This document shows, piece by piece, positions 2,973-50,358 of a stretch of 64,000 nucleotides of DNA (positions are counted from its first letter, which is position 1; each line of letters begins with the position of its first letter). The notes beneath the pieces are model-generated. The model was not told the DNA's origin. It was given only the letters and a program-made list of their open reading frames with translations, and did not search any database. Position numbers and translations under genes: made by a program. Origin of the DNA: Nemertoderma westbladi (Eukaryota; Animalia; Xenacoelomorpha); contig JAUCBJ010005712.1 of assembly GCA_032718475.1 (NCBI GenBank), forward strand, positions 1 through 64,000. Direction: 5' to 3'.

Positions 2973-3637
2973 ATGTCTGACACAAAGCAAAACCTGTCAG
3001 ACAGTCTATTAGATGTAACCATCTGTGACCCGGAAAGGAGTGTGGAGCGTTTAAGACCGAAGTTCAGCTCACCTCCTAATGTAAGAAAAGTCATCCCTCC
3101 AGTAGTAGTATCAGACCCTAGGCTAATCCAACACCGTAGGTCTATCATCGGCACTCGGGCCCAGGTCAAGCGGAATCAAGAAGCAGCTGTCCAACAGCAG
3201 CAACATCCTAGCCAAGAACTTAGTTCCCAGCAGCCCGATAGCTCCAGTAGTTCGGATACTGTAGAGCTGACCCCCGAACACGGAGTGAAGATGGCGGATA
3301 CGGTTTATTCGGATCCCCTTCTCACTCTTCCTGCAGCAGTACTAACTACGGTATTGATTGCGGTGGAGGAACACCAAGTCGATTGGGCGAGAAGTAAGCA
3401 ATCGACTCAAGACAGTTATGCGGGATACGCAAGGGAACAATTCATGTCTATTGTCGAGTCGCAATGGAACTTCCCCGGACCCGGACTCCCGTTAGACTTA
3501 TCCGAAGCTACCTGGGAAGACATACACAGGATGGGAGTGACAAAAGATACAATGGATCCAGCTGTTTTGAAGAGGTCGGCAGCAGGATATGTGCAGGGAT
3601 TCTTCGGCTCTTTAGAGCGATTAGAAGAACAACTGTT
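2973..3637 (+). pseudogene. Bel/Pao gag N-terminal segment, broken by an insertion
   Basis: MSDTKQNLSD...LERLEEQL matches the first ~222 aa of ORF 30480..32558. The rest of ORF 2973..3803 is read-through into LTR sequence. Confidence 0.9.
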
Positions 3638-16913: not shown

Positions 16914-18632
16914 TTGCTCCCTGGGCAGAAGGCCGAGGTTTCTTCCGTACCATGTATGCTAATATGTCCAGCAACATCACCAAAGTGCAACGAACTTCCA
17001 TCGGAATACGGATGGAATTTCAAAGTCGGAAATCCTATCAACTATCAACAAATATATGGTGACCATTATTCTCGATTATACTTTGACGGACCATTGACCG
17101 CACCTGGCGCCGTGTATAGCTTCATGAGTGTTCCACTTCGTCCCTCCTTAGCTATATACACGATCTTTGAAAACACCGCACTTGCCGGTTGGGTAGCCGA
17201 TGTGTGCAGTCGTACTATACGCGCCCATCCATTAATACTTGGAACCAAACTCGCCAAGTTAGATGAACATAATAAATTCATCCGCTTTGAATGTTTCAGG
17301 CGCTTTTTAACCCCGTTCCGTAACGTGGATAGCCAATTCAAGGACCGCGCTTTGACCAAGCTCAGCCTAAGAGAATCAGCTGCGGAGAAGTTAGATAGCG
17401 CCGGATTTGCAATTTTCAAAGATATTTGTATACAGAACTTACACTCCTCTGTTATACAAAGACCTCGAATCCCCACAGGTTATTCTGTCGTGGAAATTCA
17501 GACAGTGGGTTCACTTGAGGAGACAGCCACACCTACCTCGGCTATGCACTTGGAAGACGAACCAATATGCTTAGAATCCGAGGAGATACAGCCTACCGCC
17601 CCCCGGAGCAGCGACCACGACTACATCTTAGAATGGTATCAAGGTCCCCAGTGTCTCACCGCATACGACTATCGGCATGCCAACTATGTTTCTCGACAAC
17701 GTTGTCGGTTATGCGCATCGAGAGACCATATTACGCCCATGGACACAAACGTCCCCTGCTCCTATTTACACAAACAACCGTCGATGGAAATCTATTGTGC
17801 ATATTGCCGACTCAATAATTTGCACATTTTTGCGGTCTGCCCCCAATTTATGACTCAATGCCACCATTGTCAACTAAAAGGACATGCCAGTTTTGATTGC
17901 CCTTTTAATCACGATTTAGAGGGCGTAGATGAAATGATTACACTACGTTACATCCGAGCTTGGGAAGCGAACGCTGATTTACATTGTGATTCACGCCATC
18001 GCTATTACCCTAGACGCGCTTACGAAGGAGTTTATGCGTTCCATCCTTATCTATTCGCGTCTGTCAAACAGAAATCACGCATACCGAGCTACAAACTAAT
18101 GAAGCTCGTCGGAGAATGTATTTCAACCAAATTCGTACGCAAATTTCTTAGGAGCGTTAATCCCAACGATATTTATTCCTATAACTTAATCAATTTTATC
18201 CGTCAAGATCCGGAATATGGAGATTTATTTGTCAACTCACATCCCGAGTTACAGGAAGTATATCGACGGCCTTACAAATACCGAGCCCGAGAACGCGAGT
18301 TGGAAAGAACCATTAAACCGAGGAGGTTTCTCACTGCCTATGGTCCGCCCACGGCTCTCGTTCAGACCACTCGTAAAGGACCTGTAAGAGCGGCTGTCCT
18401 AAAATGCGCTCTATAGGCCGTTAGACCTCTCTCCCCCGAAGTTGACGTCGACCAACCAGGCACTTTGACCGGCGGATGCACCGACCATAATCCTACACCC
18501 TCTGATGCAATCGTATTGCACCCTTCACCCAGGAGTTATAGCCCTCCTCGTAAAGTGGCTGGCCCCAAAGAGAAAAAGACTCTGGCTAGCTTTATAAAAC
18601 TGCGTAAACGCCGTCCACGCAAGAAAGACTAA
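16914..18632 (+). pseudogene. Extra ORF (ORF3) encoding a triple zinc-knuckle protein with a basic C-terminal tail; one internal TAG at 18414
   Basis: 500-aa open frame with CRLCASRDH..C, CAYCRLNNLHIFAVC and CHHCQLKGHASFDC (canonical CX2CX4HX4C). The frame stays open after the TAG for 71 more codons and ends KLRKRRPRKKD* at 18632, just before the PPT and LTR. Confidence 0.75.
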
Positions 18633-18710: not shown

Positions 18711-19907
18711 TGTAAAAGCTTTTGTGGGATATAACTGGCCCTTTTACTTCGTAATCCAGTTTCCCCCCAGGCGCTCAAATACTCTAAAAGGCTCCCTAAC
18801 TCAAATGATGCAAGCTACCGGCTGATTGGCTGATTTGCTGTACGCAGGGCCTCTTTGTTCTGTTCGATCAACCAACCAGAGCAAGATCAACCAACCAGAG
18901 TGATTCATCCTGTGTGTTGGCCAAGGGCTGCAAAAACCCTGATAGTTCGGCATTTAGACATTCGTGGAATCTGTGGAATCTGGAGCTTTGCCAATGAGAG
19001 CTATTCCTCTCTGTGTTGAAAGCTACCTACAACAACCCACTGAGTCAGTGTGTGTTGTTTTGCTATGCCAGAACATCGGCTTGGAATCATTCTGTTTTCA
19101 GACTTTAGCCGAACAACATTAGGCTTTGATTATAGAAACGTATAACTGTTATCAGTACAGCCTAACCTCACACAAATCAGTGTGTGTACTTTTCACCGCA
19201 TTATTTTACTGCTATTTACTGTCGGTTATTAATTGTATCAGTTGATGAATATTGTTATACTTGGAGAATATCGATAAATAACCCAAAAATCCCAATCTTC
19301 TTGATACACTAAAGGTTAGAGAGACCGGTTACATATAGTTATGGTTATATAGTTATAGGTTATATATATTATCGTGGTTTGTAGTGAATCTAATGCTATT
19401 TCATAGATACTACATGAGTCCATTGCTGTTCCCTTTATGTATGGTCAAAGTCAGTGACTGTCGGCAGATCAGTGTGCAGTATTGTGCGATACCGGTAGTG
19501 TGCATGATTGTGACTGATAACTAAGCATCTCCTAAAGAATGCGCCTCATACGTGAATCATAAGCCGTACCGTTGCGTTTAGTATAAGTCATAACTCTGTT
19601 TACATATTTAGAGCGCCACGTCCTAAAGGAACTGTTAATATTTCCCGAAAGTGAATAATATTTGTCAGAGATTATATATTAACGATCAATCGAATAATAC
19701 AGTAGGCTTACACCGCAATAAGGTCAGAGCATCCGAATCCAGTCTCCCGGGTATATCCAGCGGGTGAATGATCGCGCATCGGCTGGCTTCGGCTAATGTA
19801 GTGTTTATTTGTATCAAATACTTGTCATAGGCTAAAGTCGATTTATAAACTAAAAGACATATAAATTTTGGCAGGTTAAACTGCTAAAGGTCTTAAAAGC
19901 GCGAACA
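18711..19907 (+). repeat. 3' LTR of copy 1 (1197 bp)
   Basis: Starts TGTAAAAGC and ends GCGAACA; homologous to the LTRs of copy 2; contains CCAAT-like boxes. Confidence 0.95.
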
Positions 19908-25767: not shown

Positions 25768-27140
25768 CCCGCCGAAGACCGTTTGATTCAGGTTGCACCA
25801 AGGACCGTTTTCGGTCAAATTGACCCACAGTACAGTATATTATTGATAAATATATCATTCAAAATGACCAAAAGTGAGGCTTTATCAGTGTGGAACCTGA
25901 TATATGATCGGAAACTCATTTGCGACTTATATATGATTGATTTCAATAACGAGCGTAGCGAGTGACACAACAAAACGTTTCTCAAAAAGTTTCTCATTTT
26001 TTTCAGATATGTAGGTTACTGCATTATGAAAATCGCCCACGCCATGTAAAATTTGAAGGAGTAACGCGCCAATCTGTACTGTTACGATACTGACGGTATC
26101 TGGTACAATCTGTACGCGTTACTGTACAGTACTATTGTACATATAAATGTTGACGACTCCACCTGAACAAGCCTGTGTATAAGATGAGTTTCATAATATC
26201 ATTAACGTAACTACTCAGACTATTTACTTCAAACTGCGATTGATTAATGAGCGAAGCGAGTGACACAAAAGCCGAGGACCTAAAGCTATGGGACCTAAAC
26301 GATACGTGACCTGATGACCTACTGCTACTGACCTAACTCAGTAACTGCCTAAAGTATACAGATGTGTGGACCTAACGCTACCAGACTGCCAGGCTACATT
26401 GTCCACAAAAGAGATTCTCAAAAATGTTTCCATTTAAAGCACACCTTTTATATATTAGCCCAATTTATTAATTTATAGGCCTATAGGCTAATGACAGATA
26501 CATACTGTAATGACTACTGGTTGCCAATCTACCAATAGGTGGTAGGCCTAGATAGCTAGATGATATGTTTATGGCTATTATAGTCAGCCAGTCCCGGTAG
26601 CTTTATGTCCTGGTGGCCTGGTAGCTTTTAGGTCCTGGTAGTACAGTAGCATTAGGTCCTAGGCGTTAGGTCCTGGCATCCTAGCGTTAGTGCCGTGCCA
26701 TTCGGTCAGTAAGTCCAGTCTGCCTACATAACCAGGCAGGTTAGTAAAGGAGCAGGTTACATAGACGAGTTGAAAGGAACCCAAACTTAAACGAGAGTTA
26801 GGAATAATTTAATTGAGAATTAGGACCGATTTGGACCTAACGCTACATTACCACTGACTAGGCCTACACTTTGCAGTTTGTAGGGCCTAATTAAGACGTT
26901 CCATACATGAAATATGGTTCATGGACAATATTTCCATGTGTTTCCATATTACACATACCATCATACGCACCGAAATACAAACAGACATACAAACAGACGA
27001 ATTGACTTTTCAATGTTGATTAAGCATCGCCCTGACTTGGAAAATTGACGTGTTTACATAATTCGACTTTGCACAATTGTTTATTATGAGTAAAACTATA
27101 ATGGGTCATTTTGACCCAAACGGCCCTTGGCGTTGCCTAA
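25768..27140. mobile_element. piggyBac-like non-autonomous element remnant
   Basis: TTAA|CCC left end. Subterminal inverted repeat CACCAAGGACCGTTTTCGGTCAAATTGACCCA (about 25796) versus TGGGTCATTTTGACCCAAACGGCCCTTGGCG (about 27102-27132). The right terminus is missing. Confidence 0.4.
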
Positions 27141-27171
27141 ATGATAAAAGTCAAATTAAAAAAAAAGTGTT

Positions 27172-28395
27172 TGTAAAAGCTTTTGTGGGATATAACTGGC
27201 CCTTTTGCTTTGCAATCCAGTTCCCCCCAAGGCGCTGGAATACTCTAAAAAGTAACTCGAATGATGTAAGCGACCGGCTGATTGGCTGATTTGCTGTACG
27301 AGGGGCTCTTTGCTATGTTCTATCGGCCAACCAGAGCTATAGCAGCAGAGTATGCAACCAGGGCAACCGAGCGGAGTGACTCATTTTGTGTGCTGGCCAA
27401 GGGCTGCAAAAATCCTGATAGTTCGGCATTTAGACATTCGTGGAACCTGTGGAATCTGGTGTTCTGCCAATGAGAGCTTGTCCTCTCTGTGTAAAAGATG
27501 CCTGCAACGGTGTTAGTGTCACTCTTACTCTTACAGTGTTACAGTGTTGTGTTGTTCCTCCTAGGCCAAGAACACCGGCTCTGGAATCATTTTGTTTCAG
27601 ACTTTAGAAGAAACATTAGTAGGCTTAGATTATAGAACGTATAACTGTTATCAACTCAATCAACACAACTTAACAACTCATATCACAACTTACATAACAC
27701 CGCATTATTTTACTGCTATTTGCTGTCGGTTATTATATGTATCAGTTGATTGAATATTGTTATTTGGAGAATATCGATAAATAACCCAAAATCCCAATCT
27801 TCTTGATACACTACAGGTTAGAGAGACCGGTTACATATAACAATTGCGACTTATATTATCGTGGTTTGTAGTGAATCTAATGCTATTTGATGGCTCTACA
27901 TGAGTCAATTGCTGTTCTCTTTATGTATGATCAAAATCATTGACGGTCGGCAGATTAGTGTGCAGTATTGTGCGGTACCGGTAGTGTGCATGATTGTGGC
28001 TGATAACTAAGCATTTCCTAAAGAATGCGCCTTATACGTGAATCATAAGCCTTACCGTTGTGTTTAGTATAAGTCATAGCTCTGTTTACATAGATAGAGC
28101 GCCACGTCCTAAAGGAACTGTTAATATTTCCCGAAAGTGAATAATATTCGTCAGAGATTATTTATTAACGATCAATCGAATAATACAGTAGGCTACACTG
28201 CAATAAAATCTAAGCCATCCGAATCCAGTCTCCCGGGTATATCCAGCGGGTGAATGGACGCGCACTAGGCTGGCTTCGGCTAATGTTGTGTTTATTGGTA
28301 TTAAATACTTGTCATATGCTAAAGTCGATTTATAAACCAAAAGACATATAAATTTTGGCAGGTTAAACTGCTAAAGGTCTTCAAAAGCGCGTACA
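27172..28395 (+). repeat. 5' LTR of copy 2
   Basis: TGTAAAAGC...GCGCGTACA; matches 41570-42799. Confidence 0.96.
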
Positions 28396-28406
28396 ATAAC
28401 AGTTAT
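28396..28406 (+). promoter_or_regulatory. Non-tRNA primer-binding-site position (ATAACAGTTAT), complementary to LTR nt 27641-27651
   Basis: Directly after the LTR with no TGG; the exact reverse complement ATAACTGTTAT is at 27641-27651. Confidence 0.6.
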
Positions 28407-28722
28407 CTTCTTTATTGCAGTAAGCAATAAAGTTGAAAGTACCGGTCGACCGGTAAACCTGAACCGGTACTGATGTAGGTCCGTAGGCCCAACTGCCAGA
28501 ACCGGTACTGCTGTAGGTCCGTAGGCCCAACTGTCCTAACCAGTACTTCCAGTGCAAGTACATTAGTATTATTTCGATTGTGATATATTATATATTGTAG
28601 GCTGCCAGGGGATTAGGGATTGATCACCCCTCATTCTTTTGTATAGTTTACTTATTTCTGTCAGTTTTATTTACGTGTAAGTTAATATTGAGCAGAAGAC
28701 GTATAAGTCTGCTCAGATTGTT

Positions 28723-29246
28723 CAGATAATTGTAGGCTGGACTGTTATCTGACTGTTGTTGGGTCTGGAGAGATTGCGGCGTGTGTAGAGTCTGTCCGAT
28801 AAAGTGCCAGTTAGTAAGTTGGGGCATCTTAAGTTGTAAGGTCAACCCCCTCCTAAAGAATAAGTCGTACTACCGTGTTAGAACGCATGCTAACTAACCA
28901 TTTTGGAATCTGCATATACTGTAGTTTATTTAGGCTTGATAGTAGTCTGCCAGCGTTTTAGCCTGTGTTTGTTTGTGTGGTCTGTTCAGGTACCGTAATA
29001 GTTATTACTCAGATATTTTGTAGGCTGGATTGTTGTCTGGCTGTTGTTGGATCTGGAGAGATTGCGGCGTGTGTAGAGTCTGTCCGATAAAGTGCCAGTT
29101 AGTAAGTTGGGGCATCTTAAGTTGTAAGGTCAACCCCCTCCTAAAGAATAAGTCGTACTACCATGTTAGAACGCATTCTAACTAACCATTTTGGAATCTG
29201 CACATACTGTAGTTTATTTAGGCTTGATAGTAGTCTGCCAGCGTTT
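28723..29246 (+). repeat. Two direct repeats with 288-bp period in the leader of copy 2
   Basis: TGTAGGCTGG at 28731 and 29019, each followed by about 225 near-identical bases. Confidence 0.9.
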
Positions 29247-30479
29247 GGTTTGTATTTTGTTTGAGTATTCTGTACGGGTAGCGTAATATTTATTATTCAG
29301 AGTTTATGCGATTATTCGCAACATTCATGTCCCCAAGTTTATTCCTACAGTAATTGTGCTTGTTACACATAACGTTATAGTTAAATTAACCCCGGTACTA
29401 CACGGGCTGCTTGGCGTAGGTAAAGACTGGTGACTTTGTGCTCTGGTCACTCCAGCAGATGCCGTGGTTCTTTTAACTGTTCAAGTATATTTAACTGCTA
29501 GTTATCTGTTTTATAAGTACTTGTACCTAATTTAGGGTTTGGTGTACAGTGCTTTCCGAAAGTAATTAGTGTGTAGGCAGTATATTGTGTTGTAAAGTGG
29601 TTAATAGGCACGTTGGATCTGGTAGTCCGCGGTAACACGGACGGTAGGAACACTCCGTGATACATAACGTAGTACCTATAGCGATACGGCTATAGGTCGT
29701 CAGACGGTGGCATTTTTCCTATCTGGACAACGCAGTATATTGACTACTGGTTTATTATTCTCAAATACCGTAGTATCCTGTCTGTTGTAATAACCAGAAG
29801 TTCTAACCCTTTGTTAGACTGGTTTGTAGTTTCCCTGTAAAATTAACCCTAAAATTTCGTACGTAATATTTTTGTTGTGTTTAGTTAGAGATTTAATCTC
29901 ACCCGTATCGTAAGTAATTTGTAGATAAGTAACTTAGGAAGTAGAATTATATATTTGTTTTAGTGTCCAATAAGTAGCACTTCACTGAGAGCAACAGCTT
30001 CTGTGTAGTGATTATTTCCCAGAAATAGTAACATCTATTTCAATATTGTAACAAAACCCCTCATACGGGTATATATATATATATATCTATTATAAATCAA
30101 CTCAAAGGTTTATAAGCGGGTAGGCCTGTCATACAACAATTAGGTCTTAATATCAGTTGGACTTACTGCTTGAATAACGGTAATAGAGTAAACTAAAGTA
30201 ACTAAGTAACCCTATAATTTCAGAAATTCAATTACTCTAAATAATTGATATACCGGTATCTATAATAGGCTTATTATCTATTTGTATATATTTGCACTGA
30301 AATTATATACCGGTATTCTGTGACAAACATAGTCTGCCATACTTATATATACTATAAGTGTATACCGGTATTCTAATATATTGTAATTAATTACCGGTAC
30401 TAGGCCAACAGTCATACTGAATTACTAGGCTTGCTTTAACTGTAACTATAGCGGTAGGCATTCAACTGTATAGCTAAGC

Positions 30480-33400
30480 ATGTCTGACACAAAGCAAAAC
30501 CTGTCGGACAGTCTAATCGATACAACCATCTGTGACACAGATAGGAGTGTGGAACGATTAAGAAAAGGGTTCAGCTCACCTCCTACTGAAAGAAAAGTCA
30601 TCCCTCCAGTAGTAGTATCAGACCCTAGGCTAATCCAACACCGTAGGTCTATCATCGGCACTCGGGCCCAGGTCAAACGGAACCAAGAAACAGCTGTCCT
30701 ACAGCAGCAATATCCTAGTCAAGAACCTAGTTCCCAGCGACCCGATAGCTCCAGTAGTTCAGATACTGTAGAGCTGACCCCCGAATGCGGAGTGAAGATG
30801 GCGGATACAGCTTATTCGGATCCCCTTCTCACTCTTCCTGCCACAGTACTAACTACGATATTGATTGCGGTGGAGGAACACCAAGTCGATTGGTCGAGAA
30901 GTAAGCGAGCGACCCAAGATAGTTATGCGGGATACGCAAGGGAAGAATTGATGTCTATTGTCGAGTCACAATGGAACTTTCCCGGACCCGGACTCCCGTT
31001 AGATTTGTCCGAAGCTACTTGGGAAGACATACACAGGATGGGAGTGACTAAAGATACGATGGATCCAGCTGTTTGGAAGAGGTCGGCAGCAGGATATGTG
31101 CAGGGATTCTTCGGCTCCTTAGAGCGATTAGAAGAACAACTGTTTCGACAACCTCAAGGACCTCAAGAGCAGGAAGAGCTGCTTTATCAAGTACGCGAAA
31201 GAACCCTACGCATTAGACTAATTCTATCAGCCTTTGAGGAAACTTCCAAAAGAAGACAGGACACGTCGCTGCAAGTTGCTGTCAAGACTTGGTTCCAGCG
31301 GGTAGGTCTCAAAGTTCAAGAAACGGCCCAGTGGAAATCCCAGCTGGCTGAGCGACCAACCTATGAAGAATCAACCAATGCCACTTTTTCTCAAGTGGAA
31401 AGCGAAGTGACAGCAGAGAGACCGCGAACGAGAGACGCCATCGACATCTATCTGTCAGACTATCAGCGATTCCTAGGAGACGAAGAGTTGAGGAGACGAC
31501 TGTCTGGACTTTGCCCTAATAGTGAAGGAACCAAGCTTGTGTTGGACGCAATCGATGCGGAAATGTTAGCTGCGAACCAAGCTAAATTTGATGAACAACT
31601 CCGCATCACTAGAGTACAAGGAGAACAAATAAAGAAAAAAAGGATAGAAGACAGAAAGAAAGCGGCAGCAGCAGCAGCAATGGCAGCGGCAGAAGCAGAA
31701 AGAAAGGCGGCAGTGGCAGAGGCAGAAAGAAAGGCTGCAGTGGCAGAGGCAGAAAGAAAAGCGGCGGAGGCATTGGCAGAAGCAGAACGGAGAGCGTCTG
31801 AAGAGACCACCCAACTCGAGTTGGAAAATCTTCAAGAGACGCAGGACTGCATAAATAAACAGTTAACTGCTAGTCAAATGCAGATGATGAGTCGATCTAC
31901 TCCCAAACGCCAAGGATACACATCATCGGAGGAAGGCGAGACCACCGATCCTGAAAGCGGAGGAAATAGATCTCGTCTAAGCAGGCGTAGAAAAACATCT
32001 CACCGTCACAAATTGCCTGATTTGCCCCCAGCTGTTAGAAGACAACTAGCTAGCACAGACTTAGGTAGTACAGAACCCACAGACCAAATTATTAAGGTCA
32101 AAAGACTCCCTACGATAGTCGATGAGCCTGAAATAATTAGGCCTGTCGTTCCCAAAGCCACTCCTGTGCTAGAGACACCTGTACTTCCAGAGCTTAACTC
32201 TAAATTCCCTTTACACAGTACTACACTGCCTGTACCCGGTAGAACAGTCCATGAGAATATCCCTGTCCTGGACGCCGAGAGAGAAATCAAAGATTTGTCT
32301 CCCGTCGTCCCTACAATGTTGGCGACTCCCGATTCGGCGGTCGAGTGGGTAGAGGAGGGACGGCGGGGGATGAATCTCCTGCTCGGACAGATGCAGGAGA
32401 CTGTCCACCAACTCAAGGGAACAGTAAGGGAAAGTAAGTTAGAATTGCAAGAAGTGCAGCAAAGTATCGCGCTAGAACGCGACAAATTAGCCAATATACA
32501 AAAGGGTATACCAATACCCCCTGTAACATTGTGTCAACCTGTTAGGTCTGAAGTATAACATGCGCAAGGTGTGGAGCCTACACGCATCTATACTGCTAGT
32601 GAAATAGAAACTCCTATAGCAAACCCTATTAAGGGTGATTATAAACCTGTTGTTAATGATATTCCCTATAGACCTGATAATAATCCGAGAAATTTATATA
32701 CCGATAATTCGATATTAAATAACACGATGGCCCAAGAAAGCTTTACGCGTCAGATGGCTAGAACAGAAGCCCACCAAGCGGTCAAAGTGGGGGAAATCGT
32801 CAAATTCAATGGAGATGAGATGAAATGGTTACCTTTCAATGAATATTACAAAGATAGCATACAGAACTCTGTACTATCTAACGGAGAGAAACTTAGATTC
32901 CTCATCAAGTGCTTGGAAGGACCTCCCAAGTTAATGGCGTTAAAGTTTATTGGACATCCAGATGGATTAAGACAAGTTTGGGATACATTAAACATCAGGT
33001 ATGGTAACCAGGATAACATAGCTAAGTATTTGTATGCAAAATTAGTAGCCCCCCGAAAGTTCCTTGGTAGCGGGATTATAGAGTTTTCCGATGAGATTCA
33101 GGAGATCTGTAGACAATTGGATTGGTTAGGTAAGTCTCATGAATATCAGAGTTCCATGGTTATTGGAGCCATAGTCTCTACTTTACCAAAGGGTGGAGTA
33201 TGTACACGCTGGGACAAGAAAGTGTTGTATATGAATAAGCAACAACGACGGAGCCCTACCATGGCCGATCTCATGTCCTTCTTAGATGGTGAAGTAAAAT
33301 TACAACTCATAAAGCAGTCCAGAGAGAAAACATCGGAAAATCAGGTAAGTGAGAAACCCGTTTCTAGGAGAAGGGTAACACCCGTGTGTTATACTGACGA

Positions 33401-36400
33401 CGGCGAAAGCCAAGCTTCTCAAGGAGAGGACAGCGGGAAGGACACTGACCAATCTTACTATGTTAACAAAACCTCAAAGGACGTAAGTAAATATAAGGCT
33501 CGAACCCATGACAGGAGAGAACAGGTTGCTAAGACTCCTCCTCAGTCTCCTAACAGAATGCACGGAAGAAAGCCCGAAGAAAGAACGAGAGTGCATAATG
33601 TTACCCAAGGTAAAGTGAGTAACATCAAACCAAACTGTGCGCTGTGCGACGGGCCCCACCGTTTGAGTGCGTGTGCTGAATTCCTAAAGAAATCCCTGGT
33701 AGACAGACATGAAGTCATGTGGGATAAGCGGTTATGCTATAATTGCCTCAGACAAGGACACCAACGGCGAACCTGTTACTCCGACGTGAGGTGTGCAAAG
33801 TGCGGTGCGAAACATCACATCTTGTTACACAGTGAATTCGAACGAAACAACCCGAGTCAGGTAAGTGAGCCCGAACTACATGTCCAATTCAGTGATGTAA
33901 ATGACACTGATCAAGAATCTGAGATGGAAGGATTCTATACTGACGAATTCTCCGACGCCAACGAATCCTGTTACCTAATAAATACCGCAGTGTATCGAGC
34001 ACTTACTTACGAAAGGGACACCGACAATGAGTTCCCCCCAACTACTTTTGACAGACAACCATCTTGGAAAGCTCCAACTTCCAATGTAGGAATCAGAGAA
34101 TTTCCTGTAGTGCAGGTAAGAGTTCACGGTCCTAATAAATTGACTCCGGCAGCACAGGAACATTCATCGATCAAGAACTAGCCGAAGACATCTTTGCTGG
34201 ACAACCCAAATTCCAAACTAAGTTAAATATGTCAGGAATTATACAGGTTTGGAAATCTACCATAACGGCAGATTACTATGTAGGTGCGTTGTCCACACCC
34301 CAGGATAAATTAGGAGAACAAAGTATAAGGTCAGTAAAAATGGTGGCTATAAGGAACTTCGCTACTACCCAAGTAGAACCTTATAACTGGGACGAGGACG
34401 AGAGCATCCAACAACTTAAGATACCTCGATTCCAGACAGATTATCCTGGAGTGCAAATACTCATCGGCCAAAACGCGCATGAGGCGCTCGAGACATTGGA
34501 GAAATGGCCTGCTCAACCGCAGCCACTACAAACCTATGCGGTAAGAACTAGAGTAGGTTGGTACTTTACTGGCCCTTCCCGCAGAACTCTCGAAGAGAGA
34601 CTACCACAAGAACGAATATACCAAGTAAATGATTGGGAAGTGGAGAGCAGTGAGGTGGACGAACTAACTGAGGGAACACCATACTCCTCAGATAATGACG
34701 ACATCTACCAACTCTTCGATGAAGAGAACACAATCGACCTACTTACAGAAAACAAAATTTGGAAAAACCAGGTGAACCTATGTCAACTGATTCGCCCATC
34801 GGGACCCATTGATTACAATGACGAACTCAATGATGAGATAGAGCGCTACAACGCTAGAACTCGGGACGAACTCACCGTACGATTCTTTACTCAAGAATTG
34901 GTAGAGCCCAATTCATACGATAAGGCCCTATCGATAGAAGAAGAAAGAGCCAAGCAAATCCAGGAAACAACTACACGTTTTTTAAAAGATCAAGGTAGAT
35001 ATGAAATCGGCCTACCATTTCGAAAACGAGAACCTAGATTTATAAATAACAGACCCTTGGCAGAGAAAAGAATCACTCAATTACATCGACGCCTTACGGC
35101 AAATGCTTCAGCTAAAGAAATGTACCAAACTCAGTTGAAGAAATTTATCACACAGGGATACGCAGAGCGAGTACCGGAAGGAACACCAATAACTGAGAAA
35201 ACGTATTACTTAACACATCATTACGTTCCCAAACCCGGTAAACCCCATGAAGTACGAGTCGTATTCGATGGCTCCGCTCTATATATGGGCCAATCCCTCA
35301 ATTCCGAGTTGTTACCAGGACCCAACTTACTCCAATCCTTGTTGGGAATACTTTTAAGATTAAGACAATATTCCATCGCGTTCGCCTCCGATATAGAAGG
35401 AATGTTCTTACAAGTCAAGGCGCTGGATAGAGATAGAGACAGCCTAAGATTTCTGTGGTGGCCTGAAGGAGATCTCAACCAGAAACCGGTAGAGTACTGG
35501 ATGACTATCCAGGCTTTTGGGATCATATCAAGCCCTTCCAATGCCTGCTCCGTGGTGCGGACCACTGCGAATGACAACCGGGACACCTTCTCAAAAGAGG
35601 TGATAGATAACATCAAACGTGATATATACATGGACGACAATTTAAAGTCCCTTCCATCAGTAGAAGAAGCCATTGATGTCGCGAAAGGAACGGTAGAGTG
35701 TTTGAAAAGAGGTGGATTTCGACTGACGAAATTCACCAGCAACTCCCATGAGTTTCTGGAAGCGATACCGGTAGAAGACCGAGGAACGAAAGACCTAGAC
35801 TTAATAAAGGACAATCTTCCAGAAACCAAGACGCTTGGCTTGAAGTGGGACACAGAAAGAGATATCCTGTTTTTTCAGCTAAAACAGCAAGATAATCCAG
35901 TTCGGACCAAACGGATTTGTTTAAGTATCCTGAGCACTTATTTCGACCCATTGGGATTTATTAGCCCAGTTATATTGATTGCTCGGAGTTTAGTACAACA
36001 AATGTGGCTTGAAAACCACTCCTGGGACGATCCACTTAACGGAGAACTGTTAAAGAAGTGGATGAAATGGGAAGATTCTCTACCTGCCATCGAGAGCTTT
36101 GTAATTTCCCGTGCATATTTTGGTCATGTTCTCCCTACGTATTCCTATCAACTCCATGTGTTTGGAGACGCCAGCGATATGGGAATAGGTATAGTAGCAT
36201 ATCTGCGAGTCGAAACTCCGGATGGAATCAAAGTTGCCTTGGTTACCTCTAAGGCATTGATTAACAACAAGTTAAAGGTTCCTCGAGCGGAGTTAAAAGC
36301 GGCTTTACACGCTACAGCCATCGGCCGGAACGTAACAGAACAAATTGACTATCCACTGGAGAAAACTGTTTATTGGACCGACGCTTTACTCGTGTTGGAG

Positions 36401-38508
36401 TATATAACCAATGAAGTCTGTCAGTTCAGCGTCTTTGTTACCAACAGAGTGGCCATTATTCTTAGTCGCACAACGATAGATCAATGGAGACATTGCCCTG
36501 GTACGATTAATCCAGCCGATATCGCCTCCAGGGGAGCAACTCCACAGGAACTGATAGATACTCCAGACTGGTTGGGTGGACCCGACTTCCTGAGCAAGGA
36601 AGAGGATGAATGGCCTCCTCACCTTACTACGGCGGAGATTAGACAAGCCAAGGGAGCGGAGAAAGTCAAACCTAAAACCCGGGCGAGTAAATCGAAGTTA
36701 TTTAAACCGACGATCGATCTATCTGTATTACATACTTCCGGAAACGATGCTTCGGATCCACAATCCCTCGCCACAAATAAGTCTGTTGTGGAAATTAGAG
36801 ATAGAGATTGGAAATCTGGAATACCAGACGTCTCGCAAGGAATCTCACCCCTGCTGCAGAGAGCAATGCATCACTACAGTTCCTGGAATCGGCTCTGTAA
36901 GGCCGTCACATATTTAAGGCGATGTTTTCATCATCACTACTCCAGGACGAAGACCATTAGTGATACCGCTCCATTGACATCTGCGCAAGTTCATGTTATT
37001 AAAGATCTCCCCAATTATAAGACATCAGACCGGTTTCTAAAGGAGAAAATCAGTTACCAGGAGCATGAAGAAACCAATAAGCAGATACTGAGACTCCTGC
37101 AATGCTATGAGGATTCCGATAAGTATTTCCTGTTGTTGAGAAATCCGCAGATGCGCTTAAGGGATCGCTTCTCTAGCACAATGATGGATGGGTTAATACG
37201 TGTTGGAGGAAGGCTCACCAATGCGCCATTATCCTTTGACACTAAATTCCCCATACTCATTAGAAATCTTGAAGTACAAATCAAAATGATTGTAGATGTT
37301 CACAGTAAACTTTATCATGCTGGTAGAGAACGAGTTCTTAGCGAAATCCGAACTCGCTATTATTTTTATAAACCCCGTAGAGCTCTGAACCAAGTTCTTA
37401 GGAACTGCATACCCTGTAGAAAAGCATTCAGTAGGCCTTTAACACAGCGAGAGGCAGAATTACCTAGGGAACGAGTAAACTTCTATGACCACCCTTTACT
37501 AATACCGGTGTGGATTTATTTGGCCTTATAGTATATCGTGCTAGGACTATAGTCAAGAGATGGTGTGTCATCTTCGTATGCATGACTTGTAGAGCCATCC
37601 ATCTCGATATGGTGAACGATCTATCTACCAACAGCTTCGTCTTAAGTTTACGCCGACAGATCGCTCGCTTCGGGACTAGTAATACCATGGGATCGGATAA
37701 GGGAACGAACTTCATTGGTGCCAACAACGAAATCCAGGCTTACGTGAAGGACTGGAACCAAAGACAGGTGGACGATCAGCTAAAGATAACAGCGTCTAGC
37801 TGGACCTTCAACGCCGCCGACGCCCCTTGGTGGGGAGGAAGTTGGGAGAGATTAATTAGAAGTGTCAAGACCGCATTTCACTTTATAGTGCCGTGCCGCG
37901 CGTATCTCACCGACGAACTTTTGCGGACGTTAATGGAGGAAATCGCTGCCTATCTCAACGAGAGACCGCTTATGCCAGTCTCATCGAGTCCCGATTCCCT
38001 GGAAGCGCTAACACCCGCGCACTTCCTACTGAAGAAACCTGTAGCCATGCTCCCACGATCGGAGATTGCCGACGGAGACGAATACTGCCGTCGAACTTGG
38101 CAACTTATGCAGTTGCTATCCCGTCGTTTTGCTGACCATTTCGAGAAACATTATCTGCCCACGCTACAACTTCGAACTAAGTGGTTTGCGCAGCAAGAAA
38201 ACGTCAGCGCCGGAGACATGGTGCTCATTGTAGATTCAGACCTTCCACGTAAACGGTGGCAGACAGGTCGTATCATCGAGACTCACATCTCGGATGATGG
38301 TTTAGTGCGCTCGGTAGAACTCGTCGTCATGCGGCGTAACTTCAAGAAGCCAGGCATAATCTTCGAGACGCAACAGCTCAACCGCCCAGTTGGTCGTTTA
38401 TGTTTACTGGAAAGAGACCGAGAACTCTCCGGAAACTATGGAAGGCAAGACACTCTTCCCACGACCACCTCCCTAATTCCTCAAACATCTAGGGACTCCC
38501 TAACGTAA
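30480..38508 (+). pseudogene. Bel/Pao gag-pol polyprotein, copy 2
   Basis: Same motifs as copy 1. Stop at 32556-32558, a frameshifting deletion of about 22 nt just before the protease DSG (about 34138), and frameshift(s) at about 37490-37530. Confidence 0.96.
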
Positions 38509-40132
38509 TACGTCTGGAGTGGGTGCATGACTATATTATTTTATCTATTTTATTATATTTTTATATGCGAACATTATTATGTACTTTATTATAATCGTTT
38601 TATTTAATTTTATTTAGTAGAATGTTATTTTAGATTATTTAGTAGAGTAGTGCAATATATTAGTGTTTATTACGTAATTACACATAATATATTTAGTGTG
38701 ACGGCGAGAAATAATTCTTTTCCTCTTTCCTTACTGTCCGTATTATATTATAAATACGAGACTACAGTAAGATGACATGTCAGTACTTATTAAAGTACAA
38801 TAAAGCTCCTACTATATTTAAGTATTATTGGTAGGCAGAGTATTAGGAATGCAAAGTTCAGATCCTCGTGTCTCGGCTAAACCAAGCTCTGGGTAGACCT
38901 TGGAAACGACTTGCCTCTTCACACTGACATTGCTTCGTGCGATATTGCTCTTCTACCTTATATTAAATAATACATATAGTAGCGTGATGTCCCTCTAACA
39001 GTAGCGTAAAACGCAAATAAATCTGTTAAACCTTTTGACCATCTGTAATTCTAGTCGATTAAGATATCGCGGCACCCACCGATATACTTGAAAGACAAAT
39101 TCTAGAATCAGTGGTTAACGTCCCCAGACATGCTCTGGAATAAATCGGTGCCCATCTTAAATATTAATTTAATATTTATTAAAATCTGTAAAATTCAGAT
39201 CCTTTAAAATTTCAAGTCAATTAAGATATCGCAGCACTTACCGATACTCTTAAAAGACAATTTTATAGAATTAAGGATCCTAGGTCCCCAGACATGCTCT
39301 GGAATAAAATTGTGTCAATTTTACCATCAAATAATAAAATTCGCGGGAATAAATTTAAATTCATATCTTTAATTCTTTAATGAATTTAATAAATTGTCAT
39401 TTTATACAATTTATAACATTCCCAAAATTCCATTAATTAATAGATCACGGGAGCGGAGATTCATCCTATTGAGTGTATTAGAGTGCGAGAATCTCCAACA
39501 TATAGTCAATAGCCGATAAAAATTAATAAAATCATGCATAGAGAGGATATTGACAATTAAAGAATTACTATTAAATAGCATTCCAGATCTGTATGCATGA
39601 GAATTACCCTAATTCTACCGCTAGCTTTCCATAATGTCACCATAGCAACACCCACGCTAGAATTAGAAGCAAGTTAAAAGAACAATAGAAAGCTTGTCCC
39701 ATTGCATAGCATAGAGAATACATAGCACACTGTTAGTATCCAAGGATACATAGTAATAACGTGACATTCTGGAAGGCACTGACTAACGGACAAATGGCCT
39801 GTATGTGTACAATTGGTAACGGTTGTGTGGAATTTGTGCGTTTGTAGGTGAATGTTACTACTAAAGTGTGTTTACAGTAGCGAGTCGCAATTGTGAAAGT
39901 AGCCCTAACTCTACCGAAAGAACCTGAAGTGGATCCAAGACTTTGGGACGGACAGTGGAGTGACTTGTGCCGGTCATTGTTGTCGTGGTGTAGCTACACG
40001 TTGGCGAAAACACCGCGACGACGATACATCGGCGCTGAGAATCCCACTGTCCGGGGGCAGAGAGGGTAGGCAGCGACGCCCGTTCGCCTAAAGATAAACT
40101 CATTATAATATTAATAAACTCATATAGCAGAT

Positions 40133-41491
40133 ATGACGGAGTTGATAGAAGATGATCTTGGTATTAGAGAGCGACATACTCTACCTTTACAAGCGTTTGT
40201 GGATAGCTTGATACGCGGTGAAGCTAATCCAACTACTACGGAGGACGATGGTTGTTATATCAAACCGCCTATGTCCCAGGAGCAACTTACGCGTGAATTG
40301 GGCTATAGAAAATTCACCGCTCGCTATACGCATCGTAATGGTACGTATATAGACTTCTTAACCACTGACCATCCTATCGATTTACACGATACGGGCGATG
40401 TAGACACCGAAAGGGAAATGGGTTTATTTAAATATCATACCCAGCGGAGTCGTAACGATAAACCGAGAATGGAACACGAGAATTCTATTCGTAAATCGAC
40501 TCGAAAGAAAAGACGTTAAAGAAGCTGATAAACGCGGTAACTCCAACGTATATTTGGAATTCTTGAGAGAAGCATTGTAACACCAAATAAATATCACCCG
40601 TTTCCTCTACAAGGCGTGCGTCTTTGGTATTATTACGATGAATGCCCAAGACCCAATCAACAAACGGAAAGACATAAATACCAGCGAAGACGTTGCTTTA
40701 AACACGGTTTACTCGCTATATTCACGGAATTTTGAGCGAAACTTATTCGATGTATCACCTACGCTCTCTCGACTTGAACGCTCTTTAAGTAAACCTATGA
40801 TCAGAGTTCCGGAATACTCGATCAGACCTCCTCATTCCTTGGTTGGACCTTGGACTTTTGGTCCTAATAGTATCACGGATCCTCACGAACTGTACTCACC
40901 GTTCAGAGATCCAATGTTACCCGAACCGTTAGTCGGTGGCACTCAGGTTGTGGGCTCCCTAAATATCCGCCCATCTTACCTGGCCGGATTGGGGCACGGG
41001 CACCTGATATCGCCATTCAACCGTATAATCGGATTTTTCCCCGTTTAACACGATACAACCCGTCATCAAGGTGGAGGAGAGCGTTGTACGAAACGAGTTA
41101 GACGCTATTCTACAAAGATCAGAAAAGAAACCTACGTTTGTTCAGATAAACTTAAATTATAACAGCAAGTCCAAGCGGTAAACGGATTGGCTTTATCCCA
41201 GTTCGATTTGGAAATCCAGAATCTCTAAGACAATATTGAACTTGGACGACCCTATTCTCGGCGAGAGTTTTGGACGAAAGTATCCAACGATGAGCGAAGA
41301 AAAATCAGCTCGAGGAGAAGCATATCGAAACGGCGGATACCCCGACTATAACGCTACACCTTCTGATGCAATCATATTGCACCCTTCATCCAGGAGTTAT
41401 AACCTCCTTGTAAAGTGGCTCGCCCCAAAGAGAAAAGGACTCTGGCTAGCTTTAAAAACTGCGTAAACGCCGTCCGCGCAAGAAAGACTAA
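40133..41491 (+). pseudogene. Extra ORF region (ORF3) of copy 2, decayed, with a different central segment
   Basis: MTELIEDDLG N-terminus and GGYPDYNATPSDAIILHPS...RKKD C-terminal sequence shared with copy 1. The centre (about 40490-41330) is unrelated to copy 1 and reads largely in one frame with several TAA stops. Confidence 0.65.
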
Positions 41492-41569
41492 CTGTTTAGA
41501 GTATTTATGTATATTAGAAACTGTGATTTTGTATATTTTATAGACTTAAATCCCATTTTCTGGGAGCGG

Positions 41570-42799
41570 TGTAAAAGCTTTTGTGGGATATACCTGGCCC
41601 TTTTGCTTTGCAATCCAGTTCCCCCCAAGGCGCTGGAATACTCTAAAAAGCTCCCTAACTCGAATGATGTAAGCGACCGGCTGATTGGCTGATTTGCTGT
41701 ACGAGGGGCTCTTTGCTATGTTCTATCGGCCAACCAGAGCTATAGCAGCAGAGTATGCAACCAGGGCAACCGAGCGGAGTGACTCATGTTGTGTGCTGGC
41801 CAAGGGCTGCAAAAATCCTGATAGTTCGGCATTTAGACATTCGTGGAACCTGTGGAATCTGGTGTTCTGCCAATGAGAGCTTGTCCTCTCTGTGTAAAAG
41901 ATGCCTGCAACGGTGTTAGTGTCACTCTTACTCTTACAGTGTTACAGTGTTGTGTTGTTCCTCCTAGGCCAAGAACACCGGCTCTGGAATCATTTTGTTT
42001 CAGACTTTAGAAGAAACATTAGTAGGCTTAGATTATAGAACGTATAACTGTTATCAACTCAATCAACACAACTTAACAACTCATATCACAACTTACATAA
42101 CACCGCATTATTTTACTGCTATTTGCTGTCGGTTATTATATGTATCAGTTGATTGAATATTGTTATTTGGAGAATATCGATAAATAACCCAAAATCCCAA
42201 TCTTCTTGATACACTACAGGTTAGAGAGACCGGTTACATATAACAATTGCGACTTATATTATCGTGGTTTGTAGTGAATCTAATGCTATTTGATAGGCAC
42301 TACATGAGTCAATTGCTGTTCTCTTTATGTATGATCAAAATCATTGACGGTCGGCAGATTAGTGTGCAGTATTGTGCGGTACCGGTAGTGTGCATGATTG
42401 TGGCTGATAACTAAGCATTTCCTAAAGAATGCGCCTTATACGTGAATCATAAGCCTTACCGTTGTGTTTAGTATAAGTCATAGCTCTGTTTACATAGATA
42501 GAGCGCCACGTCCTAAAGGAACTGTTAATATTTCCCGAAAGTGAATAATATTCGTCAGAGATTATTTATTAACGATCAATCGAATAATACAGTAGGCTAC
42601 ACTGCAATAAAATCTAAGCCATCCGAATCCAGTTTCCCGGATATATCCAGCGGGTGAATGGACGCGCACTAGGCTGGCTTTGGCTAATGTTGTGTTTATT
42701 GGTATTAAATACTTGTCATATGCTAAAGTCGATTTATAAACCAAAAGACATATAAATTTTGGCCGGGTAAACTGCTAAAGGTCTTCAAAAGCGCGTACA
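41570..42799 (+). repeat. 3' LTR of copy 2
   Basis: TGT...ACA followed by the TSD GTGTT. Confidence 0.96.
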
Positions 42800-43029
42800 G
42801 TGTTAAAGTAAAAGTTGTGACACCGTTACATTTGGATAGAGTATAAAAAAGTAGGAGAGGTAATGAAATATTGTGACCTCAATAATTATATTGAATTTTG
42901 TACAGTACATGTAAACTTAGAACTCGCAACAGTGGGCGTAAGGCGGACTCCGAGTGGAAGATAATTCCAAATATTGGGCGCAGCTACAGCGAAATATCGA
43001 TACAGTAGCTCTCTAGATTAAATCGTGGG

Positions 43030-44049: not shown

Positions 44050-45221
44050 TAGGAGGAGTTTTAGGCATTAAAACCATTCTCTCTCAGAAAATTATCATAA
44101 CTTTAGTTACAAAGTTATTTACAAATACTGTAAAAATGTTACCCGTAAGTCTTAAACTATTTTCTCTGCTGTCAGCTCTTTTCCTACTCCAGGTAAGTTT
44201 ATATAATGCATAAAGTATTCATTTAGCGTTGTTATCTGAATTATTCATTTAATGATTTGCTCACGTGAATAAAGAAACCCTTTATTAAGGATGTTAGATT
44301 TATTCATCAAAACAAAAAAAAATGTTTTCTCACAGAATTATTCCACAAACAGAAATTGTATTTAAACGGTTAGCATCCTATAGAGAGTGACAACGCATAC
44401 ATGACTGTGGCCAACAGCTGTTTGACTGTCTCACAAACTGTCTGTTAGTTATTCAGTTCACATTTATTTTGGTTTTTGTCCGAGTATTGCAGACTGGTTT
44501 GCTATTATTATGACCTCCCCCAGTCTGATGTGTCCGGATATCAATATTGGTTGTCCAGTTGTCCTTTTTAGTTGTCTAGTTGTCCGTATAGGTTATCCCC
44601 GTCACCACCATTTGGTCTCCCCATGTCGCGTTGGATATCCGTCTGTCCACGTCTGTTTCCCTGGCCACGTCTTATTCCCATGTCGACATTTGTTGTCCCG
44701 TTGTTCCCACACCAATTGTACCCCAACTCATGTCAGTTTTCTTGTAATATTGTAATATGTGGTGGATTTTTCAACATTTTCTAACGCAATAATTTTTATT
44801 ATCCGTTTAAATCACTCATGATGTCCTTTTTTTTTACTTTTTATGTCCTCCAGAAATTTACCGTTAGGTTCCATGCTACCGGTTTCTCTACTGCTGTTGT
44901 CCCAGGCTGCTATCAGTACCGGTATTAGTATATAGAGCACTATTTTGCAGTATTATAGCTGTATTGTTTGTACAGATGTAGGTATTAAACAGGTATTTTC
45001 GGTATTTTAGTACCGGCACCGGTACTGCTGTAGGCCTACTGTGTAGCCTTACCATTAGAATACGGTATTGGTAGGGCTACCGGCTGACCGGTTGTGCTAA
45101 TAAATTTTAAATAATTGATACAGTAGGCCAAACTGGATTGTGGAAAATGTGGATATACCTTTCAGTAAAAACTACTTATACATGTTATACCCCGTTACCG
45201 TTTCCATTTGATACCGTTACC

Positions 45222-45800
45222 GTTGGTTGGAAAATCCCGCCTCTGAAACATGCTCCTTTCCCTCAATTAGTTAAGTGATCGTTTATTGTTTTGGTTAGAA
45301 AATCCCGCCTCTGTAACCTGCTCCTTTCCCTTGAATAGTTAAGTGATCGTTTATTGTTTTGGTTAGAAAATCCCGCCTCTGTAACCTGCTCCTTTCCCTC
45401 AATTAGTAAAGAGATCGTTTATTGTTTTGGTTAGGAAATCCCGCCTCTGTAACCTTCTCCTTTCTCTCAATTGGTAATGTTATCGTTTATTGTTTTGGTT
45501 AGAAAATCCCGCCTCTGTAACCTGCTCATTTCCCTCAATTAGTTAAGTGATCGTTTATTGTTTTGGTTAGAAAATCCCGCCTCTGTAACCTGCTCCTTTC
45601 CCTAAATTAGTTAAGAGATTGTTTATTGTTTTGATTAGAAAATCCCGCTTCTGTAACCTGCTCCTTTCCCTAATTTAGTAAAGTGACCGTTTATTGTTTA
45701 GGTTAGAAAGGCTAACCTGTGTAACCTGCTCCTTTCCTTAATTTGGTAAAGTGACTGTTTATTGTTTTGGTTAGAAAATCCGGCCTTAACCTGCTCCAAC
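45222..45800. repeat. 68-bp tandem repeat (about 8 units) in a FReD intron
   Basis: TTGGTTAGAAAATCCCGCCTCTGTAACCTGCTCCTTTCCC... at 45291, 45359, 45427 and onward. Confidence 0.9.
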
Positions 45801-46037
45801 CAACCTTAACCAGAAACAGTGAATTTTGAAAAAATGCGACTTATGGTCTTTTTACATTGCACGGCAGAGTTATTTATAATTTATTTATTATTACAGGCAA
45901 ATATGGACAATGTGGAGCCATTAATGTAAGTTTGTTAGTTATTTTAAATTATTATTTTAAATGTAGTTTCATGCGATTTCATAGATATTGTAAGTGGTGA
46001 CAAGTTGAGATAAATTCATAAAAGTTATAAAATAATT

Positions 46038-47513: not shown

Positions 47514-49337
47514 CACCCTGGGGCTGAATACAGATTTAGTCGAAAAAATTAGCCCAAGAATTTGGGTTATATTTTGTGACTCTTTGACCCAAAACGATCC
47601 GATTTCGCGAAAAATAAAAAAAAATTATCGAAGAAAATTTTATTTATAAGTAATTTAATATTTATTTAATACTTATAAATATTAGTGACCAATCACTTAA
47701 TTAACCCATGGATATATCATGGAAATTTGGAGTCTGTGTGTTAAAGTAATGCAAAAAAACAAAAATGTAAAAAAATTTATCGATATATATTTTAGTTATT
47801 AATAATTTATTAATTATTTAATACTAAAAAGTATTAATTTCTGAAAATGAATTAGCCCATGGATAAAACAAAATAAAATTGAGTCTATGTGTTAAAGTAA
47901 TTCAAAAAATCGAAAAAGTTTAAAAAAACATCGATATATATTTTAGTTATTGATGTTTAATAATTATAAATATTAATAATTAATTATTAGTAGTGTTATT
48001 TAGGTGTGTATGGGATGTGTGGGTGGTTGGTTGCATTATAAGAAATTGAAACGAAATAATTAAAACATAAATCTGGCATATAGTAACTTTCATACATTCT
48101 CAAATTATAAATAGTATGATGATATGCTGAATGCCAACCAAGTATGTTGTGTAGAACAAATACTCCCCCCCCCAGACAATCACTACCTGCTTTATTATTT
48201 ATCAAACACAATTACATATATTAAATCCCACCCACTCCAGATGCCCAGCAACAGCAGGGCAAACATACAATAGCTGCCTCTACTCCTGTCTACCTATCAG
48301 TATTAATTTACAATGTATCTGGCAGGCAGGAGGCCATTGGCATTTTGGTCATAAATCATTATTGTTTTGAGTTTAAATTTAATCAATTATTTCTTTATTT
48401 TGTATGTCTCCACGTCTCCATTAGAGATTACATAACAGGTGTGGGTGTGCGTGCATGGTTTTTACAAAATTATAAATATACAATAGTGATGTTTAATACT
48501 TGTAAAAATTATTCCAATTAATGTAATGTTTCCTTTAATATTTAATATATATATTCCTTTACTATCGATACATTCAGACTTTCAGACTAGTTCCTGGTAA
48601 AAATACAAGGTACCCTTGATACACCCAAAGTACTCTGAACATCTGTTACGAGCCGTTCAAGAATATAACTCTAAACATTTGTAAATAAACTAAAGTATTA
48701 TTAATAATGTACAATAAATATTAATATTGTTAAATAAATATAAATCAATTTTATAATATATGTATATTTTTAATAAACTTCAGTTTTCTGCATTAGTATA
48801 ATGATATTCCATGTACACATATTTTAATAATTATTGAAAATAATGATTATTAAAATACTAATTTATATTTATAATTATTTATAATAAGTAAATATCAATA
48901 CTTAAAATATATTATATCGTTATTTTTTTTTAATTTTTGGATTTTTCGCATTACTTTAACATATAGACACCATTTTTTCTTTCCAAATCCATGGGCTAAT
49001 TTATTTTTGAAAACTAATATTTGTTAGTATTAAATAATTATTAAATTACTAATAACTAAAATATATATCGATAAATTTTTTTACATTTTTGTTTTTTCGC
49101 ATTACTTTAACACATAGACTCCAAATTTCCATGATATATCCATGGGCTAATTAATTTATTGGTGACTAATATTTATAATTATTAAATAAATATTAAATTA
49201 CTTATAAATAAAATTTTCTACGATAATTTTTTTTAATTTTTCGCGAAATCGGATCGTTTTGGGTCAAAGAGTCACAAAATATAACCCAAATTCTTGGGCT
49301 AATTTTTTCGACTAAATCTGTATTCAGCCCCAGGGTG
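47514..49337. mobile_element. Non-autonomous DNA transposon, Chapaev-like (CAC..GTG termini, 4-bp TSD GGGT)
   Basis: TIR CACCCTGGGGCTGAATACAGATTTAGTCG... is perfect for about 100 bp and imperfect for about 400 bp. GGGT at 47510-47513 and 49338-49341. Excision restores the FReD frame (FTGRG-YVDP). Confidence 0.9.
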
Positions 49338-50358
49338 GGGTATGTAGATCCCAATGATTGGGACAATTATGATACAAAGATTTACACCAACGAACACCGA
49401 TACGCGGAATACGACAACTTCTCTATCGGATCAGCTGCAACTAATTACACCCTACATGTATCCGGTTACCATGGTACTGCTGGTGACTCATTGGAGATGA
49501 ACAACGGGTCTCCATTCTCTACCAAAGACCGCGATAATGACGGGTGGGGCTCCGTCAACTGCGCCGTACAACGTACTGGGGCGTGGTGGTACAAGGACTG
49601 CGGGGGCAGTAACTTGAACGGAGAATATGGTGGGGGGGATTGGAAAGGACCTCATTGGGCTCATTTTACTGGAGGGAGTCCGGCTTCTCGAGTTGAAATG
49701 AAGATTTGGATTTAGTAAAACTGTAAGTTTTATATAAAATTACTAAATAATTTCAATAGAGTTGCGTTGGAAACTAACTTTTATATTTAATTACAAATAA
49801 TATAAAAAATTAATTATAAAAAATAATAATAAACAATATTATAATATAATATAAATATAAATGAAATATATGATATAATATATTTTGCTGAATAGTTAAT
49901 AATAATAATTAATAATAATGAGTTCCGGAATAAATATCGTTTTTTACTATAAAATTATTGACTTTAACGTTTTTATTATTTATTTTGCAGTTTGAATTCC
50001 CAATGAGTTTTAGAAGAGACTGAATCTTGGCTATTCTGCTATATGTTACCAGTTTATATGTGTGATGGTTATGGGTTATTGGTTTATGTTGGTTAATATT
50101 TACAATATATTAATAAATTATAGTTGCAATAACTTAACTTTATTTACTTAACTTGCTGTTAGACCAGGAGGGGCCGGTTGCATATAAATCAACCTTAGCT
50201 AAGGTGCACCTTAACTCATAAGTGTTGCCTTAAATATTTCAACATCCGTATCAGTTGTCTGCCTAATATTACCTAATATATTTTATAGAAACATTTTGAG
50301 AACGTCGGAGGAGGTCCGATAGCAAAATTAGTACTTTTCAAAATCTAATTGGTTACAA

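Follow-up and report, generated by a model that had tools for sequence, protein, structure and literature searches.

The window analysed here, 64,000 nucleotides of animal DNA (Nemertoderma westbladi, contig JAUCBJ010005712.1, positions 1 to 64,000), contains two copies of one Bel/Pao retrotransposon family, both on the forward strand. Copy 2 occupies positions 27172-42799 (15.6 kb) and is flanked by the 5-bp target-site duplication GTGTT (27167-27171, second copy at 42800-42804). Its 5' LTR (27172-28395, 1224 bp, TG...CA) and 3' LTR (41570-42799, 1230 bp), the ends of which were fixed by LTR-LTR alignment, are 98.9% identical, and the 3' LTR is preceded by a purine-rich tract (41560-41569) that is found with identical sequence before position 18711. 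The gag-pol region (30474-38508), interrupted by one stop and two frame changes and hence present as four open pieces, encodes DUF1759, three Cys/His knuckle motifs, a reverse transcriptase (RT) with the YMDD motif, Peptidase_A17, an integrase zinc domain (Integrase_H2C2), and DUF5641. The Pao-type domains stand in the PR-RT-RH-IN order, and the LTRs begin with TG, end with CA and are bordered by a short target-site duplication, all of which is characteristic of Bel/Pao elements. A homologue search with residues 200-850 against longer proteins yielded 225 matches; the 120 matches listed were all Bel/Pao polyproteins (31-44% identity), the named homologues among them coming from fish, sea urchin, starfish, ascidian, oyster, and pseudoscorpion. 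The leader ahead of gag (28396-30473, about 2 kb) carries two copies of a 290-bp repeat and short repeats of 30-40 bp.

Copy 1 extends from the start of the window to position 19907. Its 5' LTR (56-911) is cut at the window start, the first part being absent, and its 3' LTR is located at 18711-19907. The leader, together with a portion of the LTR and the beginning of gag, is tandemly duplicated in this copy (361-3337 and 3636-6612, 99.3% identity), which may be real or an amplification artefact. Between the integrase and the 3' LTR there is a 500-aa open frame (16914-18416, forward strand) with three Cys/His knuckle-like motifs; it has no Pfam match and no counterpart in copy 2 or in the 78 metagenome loci described below. 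Head-to-head amplification-adapter sequence, which we take to be of the SMART/ultra-low-input type, is present within the assembly at 1-55 and 57283-57334, and chimeric joins are therefore possible near these positions. Among the other features of the window there are an exon of a host gene encoding a fibrinogen C-terminal domain (49227-49715, forward strand), and tandem arrays of 30-, 20- and 68-bp units together with a pair of 484-bp inverted repeats (57570-60270, 62050-63200, 45150-45900, and 47514-49337).

The sequence ATAACAGTTAT occurs at positions 912, 4187, and 28396, each time directly 3' of the terminal CA of an LTR, and no TGG, the mark of a tRNA-type site, follows the LTR at any of the three LTR/leader junctions of the window (911, 4186, 28395). 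A primer-binding site (PBS) complementary to a host tRNA 3' end, which is a described trait of Bel/Pao elements rather than a phylogenetic criterion, was thus not found in the window. The exact complement of the primer site, ATAACTGTTAT, is located at 161, 19142, 27641, and 42044, that is, once in each LTR holding that part; the copies at 19142-19152 and 42044-42054 belong to the 3' LTRs. The PBS of Tf1 begins ATAAC. In copy 2, the candidate self-primer (27641-27651) lies 470 nt into the LTR, its 3' end being 744 nt before the LTR end, and the primer-binding position (28396-28406) is flush with that end. The predicted duplex (offset 0) is 11 nt long in copy 2; in copy 1, it joins 160/161-171 to 912-922/923 and has a length of 12 nt. 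The Tf1-type arrangement, a PBS complementary to at least 10 nt of the element's own LTR and ending at the LTR edge, is thus present here. Direct reading of the alignment gave 12 of 12 identical positions for the motif including its end. Just 3' of the candidate primer starts a hypervariable C/A-rich segment (27653-27700), which differs between the copies and forms the predicted seam of cutting and strand transfer. The primer site is followed by a 9-bp leader hairpin (28410-28432; 929-951 in copy 1, where site and hairpin together span 912-951), which is present in the predicted fold; in a variant contig from one sequencing run (X3), the stem is retained, with different pairs and a single bulge. 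The third primer site (4187-4197) lies inside the tandem duplication, and the 3' arm of its hairpin is changed.

An earlier note on this DNA had reported the absence of TGG, the exact LTR complement flush with the LTR edge in both copies, the hairpin after the primer site, and the divergence of the LTR just 3' of the motif; all four observations were borne out by the positions and the alignments. The note had also extended the pairing past an internal loop (AGAA(A)/TT(T)CT) and read it as a compensatory indel. The extension is indeed found in the sequence, but the compensatory indel was not established, because the extension amounts to only 4-5 pairs rich in A-U, and one of its positions, 27637, is variable in about 35-50% of the family depth. 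Dinucleotide shuffles of the LTR produced a complement of at least 11 nt at offset 0 in 9 of 5000 cases (p ~0.002), and at offsets 0-5 in 22 of 5000; such an LTR complement was found for 7 of 13,050 internal positions. A complement split by an LTR intron was also considered for the window element and rejected, as the best spliced duplex has 7 nt, no strong donor is common to both copies, and the complement is contiguous. Rfam gave no matches at E up to 1 in 27100-30600; hence nothing here hints at a tRNA-like primer encoded by the element itself, such as the C. elegans element Cer7 is said to possess. No tRNA genes were predicted in the window by ARAGORN.

Parts of the stretch were found, as assembled contigs, in five sequencing runs, none recorded as RNA, of which four are DNA runs from three studies. 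In these four, 11-253 contigs per run of this high-copy family cover 27590-27690. The LTR is common to the family contigs up to 27652 and branches right after it: many contigs end at 27652-27653, and the summed depth is about tenfold lower by 27654. The family variants listed are indels at 27602-27635 and a substitution at 27637, with none in 27641-27652; since differences near contig ends are not listed, the branch point is a firmer fact than the variant-free motif. Within the primer site (28396-28406), no substitution occurs among the 40 best-supported variants listed (192 further rows follow), which do include the common variants at 28407 and 28408. Cutting and subsequent strand transfer would be expected to produce such a seam one base 3' of the duplex. 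In run X4, taken for RNA by guess only (share 0.11), positions 27586-27693 are uncovered and no GT-AG joint was found, a result that is neutral between the readings.

Relatives of the element were collected by a metagenome scan with a 46-protein alignment, in which 514 of 671 matched stretches were confirmed and the best 78 loci were taken; no relatives were found in viral contigs. For seven families, LTR-LTR homology had already defined the LTR ends when the search for pairing began. None of these families has a TGG at the junction, and contiguous complements reach 6-9 nt only. In all seven, however, an exact complement of 10-15 nt at offsets 0-4 is formed by the pre-donor end and the post-acceptor start of a predicted intron with a GTAAG or GTACGT donor and a pyrimidine-rich AG acceptor. 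When the seven families and the window were compared in an 8 x 8 cross table, each primer site scored 10-15 nt with its own LTR, while the 56 cross scores were 4-9 nt with one exception of 11 (a tie). Placing the primer of the relatives at an initiator-like TCAGT yielded 6-9 contiguous nt only, and this candidate was abandoned in favour of the splice junction.

In a blind test, every ACA or ATA upstream of the coding region was treated as a possible LTR end. The set comprised 58 loci (65 of the 78 with enough upstream DNA, minus 7 same-family duplicates), many of them without a full LTR. Own pairing of at least 11 nt was observed in 19 of the 58 loci, compared with 166 of 3306 cross-locus pairs; 2.9 loci were expected, and the binomial p of about 3e-11 is too small because related families remain in the set. 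In addition, LTR/leader junctions were curated at 36 of the 78 loci, seven being fixed by homology and 29 placed by eye, with related families non-independent. TGG is absent from the first 6 nt at all 36. The splice test required an intron of at least 40 nt and allowed a contribution of 3-10 nt from exon 1. Of the 28 junctions whose contig contains the LTR, 27 pair with that LTR over 10-16 nt; in 24 of them the pairing depends on removal of a predicted GT-AG intron (71-426 nt), and in three (L031, L035, and L063) it is contiguous over 11-12 nt. The one that fails, L040, attains a 10-nt pairing only with a 37-nt intron (by eye; head 170-356), which is under the 40-nt rule. Among the eight junctions with a partial LTR, L077 pairs contiguously over 10 nt and the other seven reach 4-8 nt. 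The predicted split duplexes draw 4-10 nt from exon 1 and 4-7 nt from exon 2.

The 28 loci pairing over at least 10 nt have 24 different first 10-mers of the primer site, each matched by its own LTR, and the duplex starts with GT in 24, AT in three, and AG in one of them; the window element has AT at offset 0. The covariation across diverged relatives that the earlier note had put forward as a check thus turned out favourable, as it did in the cross table. The LTRs of L019 (7096-7636) and L013 (to 2153) end in TA rather than CA, and the splice-junction pairing is still seen there. In L033 (head 80-112), AATAAA lies within the exon-2 part of the predicted primer, which means that primer and poly(A) signal overlap.

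The phylogenetic position of the element was assessed with the RT-RNase H region. In an 83-row FastTree, from which nine duplicate loci and two short pieces were left out, the window protein is unplaced, at the tip of a long branch (1.16-1.23). A 29-row IQ-TREE built from the labelled rows groups it with the spliced L002 (SH-aLRT 96), which is weak given the long window branch. The five contiguous forms, window included, need five changes on this unrooted tree, and their union in one clade is rejected (p-AU 1.6e-46); L035 is sister to the spliced L043, and L077 to the spliced L049. This scattering of contiguous forms among spliced ones suggests repeated intron loss, which is the simpler reading, although the tree is unrooted and the direction unproven. 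The window element would most simply represent one of several such losses.

Taken together, the junctions point to a Bel/Pao element without a tRNA-type site, in which the element's own RNA likely serves, in cis, as the primer of minus-strand DNA synthesis; from the sequence comparisons, we give this reading a probability of about 0.8. The self-priming proposed in the earlier note is thereby supported by the pairing and its covariation and is also refined, as the complement of most relatives spans a predicted LTR intron and the window element is an intron-less form. In the proposed scheme, the element RNA would start in the LTR at or upstream of 27641, and LTR positions 27641-27651 would pair with 28396-28406. 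A cut at about 27651/27652, made probably by the element's RNase H by analogy with Tf1, would free a 3' OH, from which RT would copy 744 nt back to the cut and then transfer to the 3' end of the RNA. In most relatives, the same duplex would require removal of the predicted GT-AG LTR intron. Being located 5' of the cut, this intron would be heritable, as the copy of it would be made from the 3' LTR end of the RNA in its unspliced state; if the 3' LTR end were spliced as well, an intron-less LTR would result.

On a wider scale, we consider it moderately probable that the Bel/Pao elements of a large aquatic branch have given up tRNA priming altogether and build their primer by splicing an LTR intron, so that host splicing licenses replication, and that reverse transcription of doubly spliced RNA repeatedly deletes the intron, giving rise to Tf1-like contiguous self-primers as in the window.

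Several observations weigh against self-priming or limit its form. The promoter motifs are ambiguous. In both copies, the start of a TATA-like TATAGAA precedes the motif by 10-11 nt; as a promoter it would place the RNA start just after the motif, and this counts against self-priming. The primer need not be the first 11 nt of the RNA: in the 5 of 20 relatives that have a TATA-like box, it is located 36-207 nt before the donor. An acceptor-like TTTCAG (27595-27600), about 40 nt upstream of the candidate primer, is common to both copies with no shared strong donor upstream; it could possibly be a trans-splice (spliced-leader) site. The predicted pairing probability (central pair, over 750 nt) is 0.97-1.0 in copy 2 if the RNA starts 0-15 nt upstream of the motif, and 0.59-1.0 in copy 1 for starts 0-35 nt upstream. 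With at least 20 nt (copy 2) or 40 nt (copy 1) of upstream LTR, the fold prefers local hairpins and the probability of the duplex falls to 0-0.04.

This preference of RNAs with longer 5' ends would suit a self-derived primer that acts in trans or is produced by another cut, be it from a partner genome, from transcripts of solo or 3' LTRs, or by host processing of a 3' end, instead of an intramolecular fold cut by RNase H. The loop of the window element is also large for a cis duplex: the primer ends 744 nt before the LTR end, three or more times the 46-222 nt found in 24 relatives, which was counted against self-priming, and complementarity alone is compatible with cis as well as trans. On the other hand, no AATAAA or ATTAAA is found near the motif, those downstream (28202 and 28300 in copy 2) being absent in copy 1, and the Tf1 precedent is intramolecular according to the accessible part of PMC7175516. 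We regard a primer supplied in trans or by another cut as improbable.

Somewhat less probable still is that the pairing serves as a structural or dimerisation signal or as a splicing sensor for packaging, priming being left to an internal tRNA fragment or another host RNA. The caveat in the earlier note that the 11-mer is nearly palindromic and AT-rich holds, since it is a spaced, A/T-rich palindrome, and this was counted against the self-priming reading; half-tRNA primers are known in Copia (PMC6317226, in its available sections), and the palindromic non-tRNA sites of fungal GalEa elements were left unexplained in the portions available of PMC5445492. Yet the palindrome has T as its central base in the LTR but A in the primer site, in keeping with hetero-pairing; the variety of primer-site 10-mers among the 28 loci is unlike a small set of host tRNA fragments; and all 28 duplexes end at a distance of 0-6 nt from the LTR edge, where the 3' end of a primer must be. 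Chance or an assembly artefact, which the adapter sequence and the near-identical duplication in copy 1 might suggest, is very improbable and largely refuted by the blind test, the curated junctions and the family's presence in independent DNA runs, copy 2 having two LTRs and a target-site duplication, the shuffles giving p ~0.002, and the same geometry recurring in 27 of 28 relatives.

Self-priming, if the reading is correct, would be the usual mode across a wide aquatic branch of a third superfamily of LTR elements, independently of Tf1, and would explain primer sites missing in annotation. Such Bel/Pao elements would presumably escape control by tRNA fragments, and a splice-made primer would couple the copying of the genome to RNA processing by the host. 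The window element is a high-copy case of the intron-less form, and its predicted cut site is sharp. The present analysis contributes a test with metagenome loci, the scatter of intron-less forms among spliced ones, and a seam of the family where the cut is predicted. In the literature covered, which takes in few subscription papers, no publication on Bel/Pao self-priming or splice-built primers was found; an earlier mention may exist. The accessible text of PMC3601003, PMC5445492 and PMC13524379 contains nothing on Bel/Pao self-priming, and the words "PBS" and "tRNA" are absent from the main texts, as available, of PMC554778, PMC3118150, and PMC6238403.

According to the ICTV profile, Bel/Pao elements are tRNA-primed, with an 18-nt PBS for tRNA-Arg or tRNA-Gly, their genomes measure 4-10 kb, and their replication is poorly understood (PMC8742986). 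The window element shares with the Belpaoviridae of this profile the LTRs, the purine tract, the Gag knuckles, the PR-RT-RH-IN order, Peptidase_A17, DUF1759, and DUF5641, but differs in having no TGG site and a length of 15.6 kb. Self-priming is described for Tf1 and Tj1, and in Tf1 the RNA's first 11 bases pair with the PBS and RNase H cuts between bases 11 and 12 (PMC7175516; PMC4600332, both in their accessible parts). As in Tf1/Tf2 (Schizosaccharomyces pombe), Tj1 (S. japonicus) and the Tf1/sushi group as the same sections present them, the site beside the 5' LTR has its complement in 11 nt of LTR-derived RNA of the element itself and is not a tRNA site. Unlike in Tf1, the loop in the window measures about 750 nt, and a primer at the 5' end of the RNA is a candidate only. 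In most relatives, moreover, the primer spans a predicted exon-exon junction, a feature not seen in the available descriptions of Tf1/sushi. Self-priming has also been predicted, apart from Tf1/sushi, in the plant Tcn1 (gypsy) and TAR (copia) lineages, on the criterion that at least 10 nt of the LTR find their complement in a region that begins 0-5 nt after it (PMC6317226, as far as its accessible text goes). The same arrangement is found in the window, although Tcn1 and TAR are, in that text, plant elements of other superfamilies; the blastn screen described there seeks contiguous complements and would miss intron-split ones. The Conserved Hairpin Site of the fungal GalEa copia elements is similar in the absence of a tRNA PBS and in the palindromic motif and hairpin at the LTR edge, but its authors found no LTR complement, which the window element has (PMC5445492, in the part available). 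Finally, unlike Tf1/sushi, which belongs to Ty3/gypsy (Metaviridae), the element encodes proteins that are Bel/Pao, not chromovirus, by Pfam and homologues. The feature in the window is real; the element is Bel/Pao by structure and proteins, probably Tf1-like in its working and not a member of Tf1/sushi.
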